Assembly (NCBI GenBank): GCA_037130755.1 | Contig: JBAXSI010000002.1 | Coordinates: forward strand, 47,621 to 111,620 | Direction of reading: 5' to 3' | Source of the DNA: Actinomycetes bacterium | GTDB lineage: Bacteria; Actinomycetota; Actinomycetes; S36-B12 | Length of the DNA stretch: 64,000 bases | Shown here: positions 1,150 to 60,558 of the stretch, piece after piece | Position numbering within the stretch: position 1 is the first letter of the stretch | Layout of the letters: each line of letters begins with the position of its first letter | Made by a program: the position numbers and the translations under genes | Notes under the pieces: generated by a model | The model's input: only the letters and a program-made list of their open reading frames with translations | Told to the model about the DNA's origin: nothing | The model's database searches: none

Positions 1150-1209
1150 GTAAGTTACGGTACAGTAAGTTACGCAACCGTAGGTTACGGAAGGGTAGGT
1201 TCCACGATG
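1150..1209. repeat. four tandem 15-bp units with core GTA(A/G)GTT(A/C)C; first two cores sit in palindromes CCGTAAGTTACGG
   Basis: Units read directly: gtaagttacggtaca / gtaagttacgcaacc / gtaggttacggaagg / gtaggttccacgATG. Exact 15-bp period, locally low GC, ends on ATG 1207. Confidence 0.7.
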
Positions 1210-31398: not shown

Positions 31399-32391
31399 TT
31401 AGGACAGGGTGGCGACGAGGATCGCCTTGATGGTGTGCATGCGGTTCTCGGCCTGGTCGAACACGATGCTGGCCGGGGACTCGAACACCTCGTTGGAGAC
31501 CTCGACCCCGTCAGTCAAGCCGAAGTCGGCCGACAGTGACCGGCCGATGGCCGTCTTCTGGTCGTGGTAGGCCGGCAGGCAGTGCATGAACTTCGCGTTC
31601 ACGGCCGCCAGTGCCATGGTCGACGCATCGACGCGGTACGGCCGCAGCAACTCGACGCGTTCTGCCCAGACCTCCTTGGGCTCGCCCATCGAGACCCACA
31701 CGTCCGTATGGACGAACTCCGCTGCGGCGAGGCCCTCCTCGGGGTCCTCGGTCAGCGTCAGCCTCGCGCCGGTCTGCGCGGCAAGATCCGACGCCAGGCT
31801 GCGCACCTCCGCGGTCGGCCAAAGTGCCTTCGGGGCGACGATGCGGACGTCAGAGCCCATGATCGCGCCCATGACGAGCAGTGAATTGCCCATGTTGCTT
31901 CGGGCATCGCCGAGGTAGGCGTAGGACAGCGGCGCCGCCGTATCGACGGTGTGCTCGCGCATCGTCAGGAAGTCGGCGAGCATCTGAGTGGGATGCCACT
32001 TGTCGGTGAGGCCGTTGTAGACAGGCACGTCAGCGAAGGCGGCCAGTTCGTCGACCGTCTCCTGCGAGGCGCCCCGGTACTCGATCGCGTCGAAGATCCT
32101 GGCGAGCACGCGGGCGGTGTCGGCGGGTGACTCCTTGTGGCCGATCTGGCTGCTCGCCGGGTCCAGCACGGTGGCGTGCCCGCCTTGGTCGCGGATGGCG
32201 ACCTCAAAGCTCACGCGGGTGCGCGTCGACGTCTTCTCGAAGATGAGGGCGATCTGCTTGCCCACGAGGCGTTGGCGCTCGCTACCGCTGCGACGCTCGG
32301 CCTTGAGCTCGGCCGCGAGGGTCAGCAGCCCGTCGAGTTCTGCCGTGGTGAAGTCGGCCTCTTTGAGGAAGTCACGTCCGGAAAGGGTCAC
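31399..32391 (-). CDS. argF: ornithine carbamoyltransferase (ArgI/ArcB-like HCLPAYH type)
   Basis: [25 protein letters not shown] and HCLPAYH motifs. Confidence 0.9.
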
Positions 32392-32434
32392 CGCTGAACG
32401 CTACTAGGGCGCTCGAGGCGAACCTCAGGCGATG

Positions 32435-32590
32435 CCAGCCTTTGCTCACGCGAGTCCTAGCCTTGCTCCGCGAAGGCAGAGCCTTCGCTCACGCGATTCC
32501 TAGCCTTGCTTCGCGAAGGCAGAGCCTTCGCTCACGCGATTCCTAGCCTTGCTCCGCGAAGGCAGAGCCTTCGCTCACGCGATTCCTAGC
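32435..32590. repeat. 43-bp tandem repeat: degenerate half copy, 3 near-identical full copies, then a 4-nt remnant; each unit holds hairpin GCGAAGGC-AGA-GCCTTCGC
   Basis: Full copies at 32458-32500, 32501-32543 and 32544-32586 differ at one position only (c/t). Unit: tagccttgctccgcgaaggcagagccttcgctcacgcgattcc. Confidence 0.9.
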
Positions 32591-32946
32591 GCACGGGGCG
32601 ACACGGCCGCCGCGATCTCCTCGCTGGCCACGCGCAGGCCTTCGCCGCGCTCGCGTGGGTAGTGCCGCGAGTCGAGCCGGGCGTAGATGTGCTCGCGGTC
32701 CTCTTCGGACAGCCCGCCCCAGACGCCGTACGGCTCACGGGCGCGCACGGCGTAGTCGGCGCATTCCATGCGGACGTCGCAGCTTGCGCAGACGATCTTG
32801 GCGGCCCGATCACGACGGGCTCGCGACGAGCCGCGCTCGTTCTGCGGGTGGAAGAACAGGAGCGGGTCGGCCTCACGGCATGAGCCGTGCTCCTGCCAGT
32901 GCCACTGGGCATCCTTGGGCACCTGTGCCAGCGGTTGCTGGGGCAT
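32575..32946 (-). CDS. WhiB-family Fe-S transcription factor (WhiB3/WhiD-like)
   Basis: WHWQEHGSC...LFFHP...ERG...AKIVCASCDVRMEC...EPYGVWGGLSEEDRE. The stop codon and last 5 codons lie inside the tandem repeat. Confidence 0.85.
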   Translation of the reverse strand: MPQQPLAQVPKDAQWHWQEHGSCREADPLLFFHPQNERGSSRARRDRAAKIVCASCDVRMECADYAVRAREPYGVWGGLSEEDREHIYARLDSRHYPRERGEGLRVASEEIAAAVSPRALGIA

Positions 32947-57289: not shown

Positions 57290-57349
57290 CGGGGGGCGTT
57301 TTGCCGCGAACGGGGCGAGTGTGATTACATCTGCCTCACAACTGAATAC

Positions 57350-57469
57350 CTCATCCAGAGGGGCAGAGGGATACGGCCCGTTGAAGCCCCGGCAACCTTT
57401 TCGGTGACTCTCGCGTGCGAGGCCGCCCGAAAGTGGTGCCACTTCCGACCTGAAACCAGGGCAGATGAG
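57350..57469 (+). promoter_or_regulatory. SAM-I (S-box) riboswitch
   Basis: P1 CTCATC...GATGAG. Conserved cores CAGAGGGGCAGAGGGA, CGGCCCGTTGAAGCCCCGGCAACC and GGTGCCACTTCCGACC. RBS AGAGAGG lies directly after the 3' P1 strand; ATG at 57485. Confidence 0.85.
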
Positions 57470-57484
57470 AAGAGAGGCCTCGTC

Positions 57485-60483: not shown

Positions 60484-60558
<75 letters not shown>

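Follow-up and report, generated by a model that had tools for sequence, protein, structure and literature searches.

In enterobacteria, REP/BIME elements are extragenic palindromes that are located between co-transcribed genes, are dispersed in hundreds of copies and can stabilize the upstream mRNA. The MIRUs of Mycobacterium tuberculosis are tandem units of 46–101 bp that are found at 41 loci in H37Rv (PMC3914561), and they carry an ORF whose translation is coupled, through a −4 overlap, to the start of the downstream gene (PMC12548453). The MIRUs in the senX3-regX3 intergenic region are an example of MIRU-VNTR (Supply et al. 1997 and 2000, as cited in PMC3914561 and PMC12548453). At transcript 3' ends of Streptomyces lividans, a U-rich motif was found at 194 of the 1,640 mapped ends, with a stem directly upstream of both kinds of ends, and the ends lacking the U motif showed more read-through (PMC6742748).

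The array studied here is located between a whiB-like gene and an ornithine carbamoyltransferase (OTCase) gene in a window of 64,000 nt, the window being the whole stretch of DNA that was analysed. According to the ORF list, both genes are on the minus strand. The product of the upstream gene (32575..32946, minus strand, 123 aa) matched the Pfam family Whib (3.4e-23), and its best PDB match was M. tuberculosis WhiB3 (8cyf, E 3.2e-22), in agreement with the WhiB3/WhiD-like identity proposed in the initial annotation. The OTCase gene (31399..32391, minus strand, 330 aa, GTG start) scored 381.8 bits against TIGR00658, above the cutoff of 280.85 bits. Its start codon position is conserved in relatives, and the GTG at 32391 lies 45 nt past the end of the array, which matches the distance of about 45 bp given earlier. 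Two other elements were detected at a distance in the window, namely a SAM riboswitch (73.7 bits) at 57348–57471 (+) and a tRNA gene at 60487–60558 (−). At 1150–1206 (+), three 15-nt direct repeats (GTAAGTTACGGTACA, GTAAGTTACGCAACC and GTAGGTTACGGAAGG) and a partial fourth were found directly upstream of the ATG at 1207; they are AT-rich within a 68% GC genome and resemble a putative operator array.

Inspection of the window with TRF revealed a tandem array at 32437–32590 with a period of 43, 3.6 copies, 96% matches and a score of 287, while the runner-up array in the window scored 59. Three 43-nt units were found head-to-tail at 32461–32589 with no spacers, just as the initial annotation had described. 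The unit on the sense (minus) strand is CTAGGAATCGCGTGAGCGAAGGCTCTGCCTTCGCGGAGCAAGG, with the layout CTAGGAATCGCGTGA|GCGAAGGC TCT GCCTTCGC|GGAGCAAGG. Unit 1 (32547..32589, minus strand, exact match) forms the functional whiB end: the last four codons of whiB, CTA GGA ATC GCG (LGIA), and the TGA lie inside this unit, the first in sense order, so that the earlier statement that a terminal unit supplies the LGIA codons and the stop was correct. Unit 3 (32461..32503, minus strand, exact match) has the same sequence as unit 1. Unit 2 (32504..32546, minus strand) carries one mismatch, G-to-A (GCGAAGC), which appears as t at 32511 on the plus strand and accounts for the single c/t difference reported for copy 2. 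The near-identity of the units had been read as recent expansion, and this reading was supported.

The perfect stem GCGAAGGC-NNN-GCCTTCGC occurred exactly three times, once per unit, giving three perfect inverted repeats with an 8-bp stem and a 3-nt loop at 32470–32488, 32513–32531 and 32556–32574, as annotated. On the sense RNA, each of them begins at the first nucleotide after a TGA. With up to 3 mismatches allowed, no further match to the 43-nt unit was found in the window, and 0 matches were obtained in 100 shuffles. The array therefore has the properties of a VNTR or minisatellite, i.e. head-to-tail units of at least 10 bp and a score (TRF 287; 0 shuffle matches) far above chance. It was also observed that the whiB TGA overlaps a GTG (GTGA), and that in every unit an 11-codon ORF, VSEGSAFAEQG*, crosses the hairpin to the TAG of the next unit; a frame opened in the last degenerate unit continues across the OTCase start.

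The array was called 'MIRU-like' in the initial annotation, and as an analogy this held. Like MIRU-VNTR loci, it consists of tandem units of tens of bp between co-oriented actinobacterial genes, touches a stop codon and is strain-variable in copy number. The same resemblance in size, tandem layout, gene orientation, stop-codon overlap and polymorphism (PMC3914561, PMC12548453) would be expected of a MIRU/REP-like dispersed or mobile repeat inserted between whiB and OTCase, an explanation that we consider extremely unlikely on the following grounds. The first 15 nt of every unit are homologous to the whiB coding end, which is conserved as coding sequence in relatives that lack the repeat. MIRUs are scattered over the genome and appear mobile, whereas the unit was present at one locus only in the window and the 129 fetched loci, which speaks against a dispersed family. 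With its 43-bp unit and 21/22-bp sub-period, the array falls just outside the MIRU size range. In contrast to MIRUs, it contains no ORF coupled to the downstream gene: all three sense frames are closed within a unit or at a junction, the only GTGA overlap is upstream, and 45 nt separate the end of the array from the OTCase start. Searches of Rfam gave no hit at gathering thresholds and only noise at E values up to 10, and there were zero matches in plasmids, phages or viral contigs, in line with the remark that the unit was not recognised as a described repeat family. Unlike REP/BIME palindromes, the palindrome occurs here at one locus, and no other copy was found within 2 mismatches in 64 kb.

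The internal structure of the unit was more informative about its origin. TRF also reported a 21-nt period across 32424–32583, and the 43-nt unit can be divided into two diverged half-units of 21/22 nt, a (CTAGGAATCGCGTGAGCGAAGG) and b (CTCTGCCTTCGCGGAGCAAGG), which match in 16 of the 23 alignment columns and form the hairpin at their junction. The segment GCCTTGC, described earlier as a third segment able to pair with the first hairpin arm, is the second-half-unit homologue of that arm, as judged from the sequence. On the OTCase side of the 43-nt units lies a degenerate 22-nt unit without hairpin (CTAGGACTCGCGTGAGCAAAGG, 32439..32460, minus strand), which is 20/22 identical to half-unit a and would read LGLA-TGA; it contains ACTC or AATC among conspecific contigs. 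By its sequence, this unit is an older copy of the whiB terminus. It is followed by the oldest copy, a fossil whiB terminus, CTGGCATCGCCTGA (32425..32438, minus strand), which agreed in 14 of 15 positions, with one 1-nt gap, with the genuine whiB terminus CTCGGCATCGCCTGA of the relatives L093 and L100; none of 5000 shuffles was as good. The 'degenerate half unit' of the initial annotation is thus the 22-nt unit, which is followed by this further fossil terminus. Taken together, the half-units, the degenerate unit and the fossil indicate that the array is a stack of whiB termini decaying toward the OTCase gene. The same fossil termini, together with the repeat-less relatives and the lack of any other locus among those fetched, show that the array was born locally rather than inserted as a dispersed element.

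We therefore favour, with moderate confidence, the view that the array is a locus-specific minisatellite grown from the 3' end of the whiB3-like gene. A segment of about 21–22 nt, made up of the four terminal codons (LGIA), the stop and a spacer of 6–7 nt, would have been tandemly duplicated several times. The whiB-proximal copy would have stayed the working gene end, and the other copies, being non-coding, would have decayed toward the OTCase gene in the order seen today: three near-identical 43-nt units, then the 22-nt unit, then the fossil terminus. Two adjacent half-units would have diverged into the 43-nt unit, which would have placed the perfect 8-bp hairpin at their junction, directly after the stop codon. 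Later, within the species of the window, slippage during replication or unequal recombination would have changed the length of the array. The WhiB protein was never altered, since an LGIA and a stop are present in each unit. Other assignments were considered and rejected. CRISPR and MITE do not fit a unit of local derivation that lacks both spacers and terminal inverted repeats. The 21-nt period was also not attributed to an operator of the ARG-box, GlnR or PhoP type, since the ancestry in the whiB terminus explains the period; to our knowledge, the period does not resemble the consensus sequences of ARG-box, GlnR or PhoP.

Length variation of the array was demonstrated by comparison of conspecific sequences. 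By exact look-up of the WhiB protein, ten metagenome contigs that share the gene order were obtained from ENA, JGI and, in one case, an NCBI MAG; in these contigs WhiB was identical and the flanks were at least 98.9% identical to the window. Three alleles were found among the 11 conspecific sequences. Allele A (window, L003, L007 and L010) has three 43-nt units with the copy-2 variant and a whiB-OTCase gap of 183 nt. Allele B, in L004, has one 43-nt unit and a gap of 97 nt. Allele C has one 43-nt unit and a 21-nt hairpin-less unit, CTAGGAATCGCGTGAGCAAGG, with a gap of 118 nt in L001, L002, L006, L008 and L009; in L005 the stem has lost 1 nt, which shortens the gap to 117 nt. The gap differences correspond to 2 × 43 nt and to one 21-nt unit, respectively, indicating that both the 43-nt and the 21-nt registers are polymorphic. 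These results showed that the array behaves as a VNTR, as had been predicted, and an array arising by local duplication and varying in copy number is very probably the correct description. By the comparison with L106 described below, the 1-unit allele is probably ancestral in the species of the window. No strict linkage was observed between repeat alleles and flanking SNP haplotypes, in contigs that are metagenome consensus sequences and can be chimeric.

The possibility that the array or its length differences were made by short-read assemblers deserved attention, because all conspecific contigs are short-read metagenome assemblies (with k141-type names), which can collapse tandem repeats, the array (∼165 nt) is near read and k-mer length, and a 2-unit allele was not seen among the conspecific contigs; the 1-unit allele of L004 is the least secure in this respect. 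Nevertheless, the same 3-unit allele, including the copy-2 variant, was recovered from different samples in L003 (ENA) and in L007 and L010 (JGI), and its presence in three independent assemblies argues against a one-off artefact. The third allele also differs in sequence and not merely in length, namely in the 21-nt unit, in AATC versus ACTC and in A/G at −33, and a single-unit version exists in another species (L106). An artefact, which the initial annotation had named as a reason for doubt, was thus judged very improbable.

In a single locus, near-identical copies, a decay gradient and whole-unit alleles, the array resembles generic minisatellites ('exact tandem repeats'), as it does in its palindrome, which can facilitate slippage or the loss of sequence between short direct repeats. 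It differs from them in that the duplicated segment includes the last codons and the stop of a gene, and in that one unit has a hairpin shared across species. We classify the feature as a bacterial minisatellite that is confined to a single locus, arose locally and carries a 3' hairpin that may be functional.

The closest genomes are MAGs of uncultured Actinomycetota or of 'Candidatus Nanopelagicales'. In about 20 related lineages, the gene order thioredoxin, whiB, OTCase and PEPCK was kept, WhiB ended in ...ALGIA as in all close WhiB homologues, and no repeat was present in the whiB-OTCase gap of 20–60 nt. The closest OTCase relatives (81–84% nucleotide identity) had no repeat either. Among the 129 fetched loci, the array was confined to the conspecific contigs; the closest WhiB and OTCase variants were checked for intermediates, and L106 alone shared the hairpin unit. 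A clade-wide conserved hairpin after whiB was therefore rejected: most sister lineages had no hairpin at all, and most relatives' spacers folded no better than shuffles. Some further observations were made on these loci. The adjacency of whiB3-like and OTCase genes is conserved across the Nanopelagicales-like clade (L011–L129). L105 has the same WhiB protein as L106 (the S22A variant) but a hairpin-less gap of 34 nt, so WhiB protein identity is a poor guide to lineage here. In an unrelated lineage, a long inverted repeat (L017:3369–3465; MFE −56 kcal/mol, z −6.8) lies between whiB and OTCase and represents a structured insertion that arose independently at this intergenic site. The OTCase genes of L109 and L118 carry frameshifting indels (a 19-nt deletion and a 2-nt insertion) compared with sister contigs having the same WhiB, and are either assembly errors or pseudogenes.

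The comparison with L106 bears on the age of the hairpin. WhiB of L106 differs from that of the window by S22A only, while the nucleotide identity is 89% for whiB, 68% for its third codon positions and 79.5% for the upstream flank. After the whiB stop, L106 has TGA-GCGAAGGCTCTGCCTTCGC-GGAGCA as in the window, in a single copy, followed by divergent forms of the 22-nt unit and the fossil terminus (∼60–65% identical, with indels) and then by an identical core promoter. It follows from these sequences that the architecture of hairpin unit, hairpin-less unit and fossil would predate the split of the two lineages. The 24 non-coding nucleotides after the stop are 100% identical, and in the 2-kb alignment of the window and L106 (82.6% identical overall, and 75% in the other non-coding spacer) no perfect match exceeds the 36-nt run that contains the hairpin block. 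Since the hairpin unit is old and its 24-nt block is unchanged in a second lineage that has diverged by 11–18%, the hairpin is probably under selection. On balance we give this conclusion about an even chance: it rests on two hairpin-bearing lineages that are identical in the block and thus offer no covariation, and a short gene-conversion or transfer tract is possible.

The competing explanation is that the array is a purely neutral, slippage-prone minisatellite and that chance or a short recombination tract accounts for the identical hairpin block in L106. This would agree with the absence of the repeat from the ∼20 lineages with the same gene order, with the free variation of copy number within one population and with the deletion that breaks the stem in L005. 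The hairpin RNA of 19 nt alone had a folding energy of −12.5 kcal/mol (z −4.1), but the whole region folded no better than shuffles (z −0.5), and the presence of ten other perfect 8-bp hairpins in the 64-kb window makes one such hairpin unremarkable in itself. What neutrality does not readily account for is that the 24 nt remained identical despite differences of 32% at third positions and of ∼35–40% in the adjacent array, and that the longest perfect run of 2 kb should fall on just this block. Synonymous differences between the window and L106 are found as close as 12 nt upstream of the stop, which gives no hint of a longer recombination tract. A wholly neutral array was therefore regarded as rather doubtful, and selection on the hairpin is retained, at the strength given above, in what follows.

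Leaderless genes of actinobacteria have TANNNT at −6 to −13 from the transcription start; about 24–25% of transcripts are leaderless, and amino-acid biosynthesis genes are enriched among these (PMC6448022). The OTCase gene looks leaderless with the arrangement TAGCGT-N6-GTG. The predicted −10, TAGCGT (32398..32403, minus strand), is a TANNNT located 6 nt upstream of the GTG; besides the window, 13 of 15 distinct relatives have this motif 6 nt (once 7 nt) upstream of the OTCase ATG or GTG, and no Shine-Dalgarno sequence was found upstream of the OTCase start. The sequence CTAGTAGCGTTCRGCGGTG is nearly invariant in sister lineages. Both the −10 and the −35 zone fall within the unique tail of 45 nt, reaching the fossil terminus at most, which places the OTCase core promoter outside the 43-nt array. 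The assertion of the initial annotation that the argF promoter must lie in or across the array was therefore not upheld. In the relatives, the −35 zone of OTCase falls within the whiB coding end because the gap is only 20–35 nt. Position 32424 (G on the minus strand), which is at −33 relative to the OTCase start and within the presumed −35 zone, is G or A among conspecific contigs (GAGGTT versus GAAGTT); this difference is not strictly tied to the repeat allele, as L003 has three units with A.

As another reading, a dimeric transcription factor could bind the 8-3-8 palindrome, upstream of the OTCase promoter, with copy number setting the occupancy. Such an operator array seems unlikely to us. 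The inverted repeat is perfect and is centred near −88 in the 1-unit allele, L106 conserves its sequence and not merely its pairing, including the loop and the 6 nt after it, and the 43-bp spacing would arithmetically correspond to about four helical turns and put the sites on one face of the helix. Nevertheless, a search of the 64 kb with 2 mismatches allowed gave no second copy of the palindrome, relatives that share the nearly invariant core promoter have no palindrome, the position is far upstream for a repressor, and no candidate regulator was found.

A role of the hairpin in RNA was also considered. A U-tract of 7–9 nt directly after the hairpin is a feature of intrinsic terminators, and mycobacterial RNA polymerase did not terminate in vitro at hairpins without a U-tract (PMC3993855). 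The hairpin of the array is GC-rich, as expected of such a terminator, with an 8-bp stem, but it is followed by GGAGCAAGGCUAGG and the U-tract is absent. A terminator scan gave 0 terminator-like sites, and no canonical promoter or terminator was found in or near the array. Given the lack of termination in vitro at U-less hairpins, a role, if any, would lie in Rho-dependent termination, processing or protection from exonucleases. The U-less stem-loops at S. lividans 3' ends (PMC6742748) are the nearest parallel, with a GC-rich stem right after the stop codon, no U-tract and partial read-through to be expected; they differ from the present case in that the stem here exists in up to three copies. 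As the most plausible, though tentative, proposal, somewhat short of an even chance, the U-tract-less stem-loop at the 3' end of the whiB mRNA may have a 3'-end function. It would set or protect the whiB mRNA 3' end and limit read-through into OTCase, i.e. act as a partial insulator, and any dosage effect of the copy number of the units would be a further supposition.

In the context of the unit, the 8-bp hairpin competes with one of 7 bp, GCUCUGC/GCGGAGC, which was found to be of equal stability when combined with a small stem that has the UGA in its loop. The 24-nt block may thus encode two mutually exclusive hairpins, H1 (GCGAAGGC/GCCUUCGC) and H2 (GCUCUGC/GCGGAGC), the latter of which is disrupted by the G-to-A of unit 2. 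This raises the idea of a translation-sensing 3' switch, which we hold to be very unlikely. If a ribosome terminated at the UGA, the 5' arm of H1 would be covered and H2 would be favoured, so that the translation status of whiB would decide whether the transcript ends or is trimmed, or runs on across the leaderless OTCase promoter; the copy number of the units (1 versus 3) would then serve as a population-variable dial on the insulator. If true, this would link a redox-sensing WhiB3-like regulator to arginine metabolism.

The finding leaves the current understanding of repeats, of WhiB and of arginine regulation unchanged. The small hairpin at the 3' end of whiB, conserved across species, is a candidate for an insulator or 3'-end element in front of an OTCase gene that looks leaderless. 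The tolerance of the array is explained by the fact that changes of its length leave the protein unchanged, and the array could readily serve to mark strains in an uncultured actinobacterial population from freshwater. It provides a clean natural record of the birth of a bacterial minisatellite, in which the last codons and the stop of a gene were serially duplicated and the fossils decay with distance.
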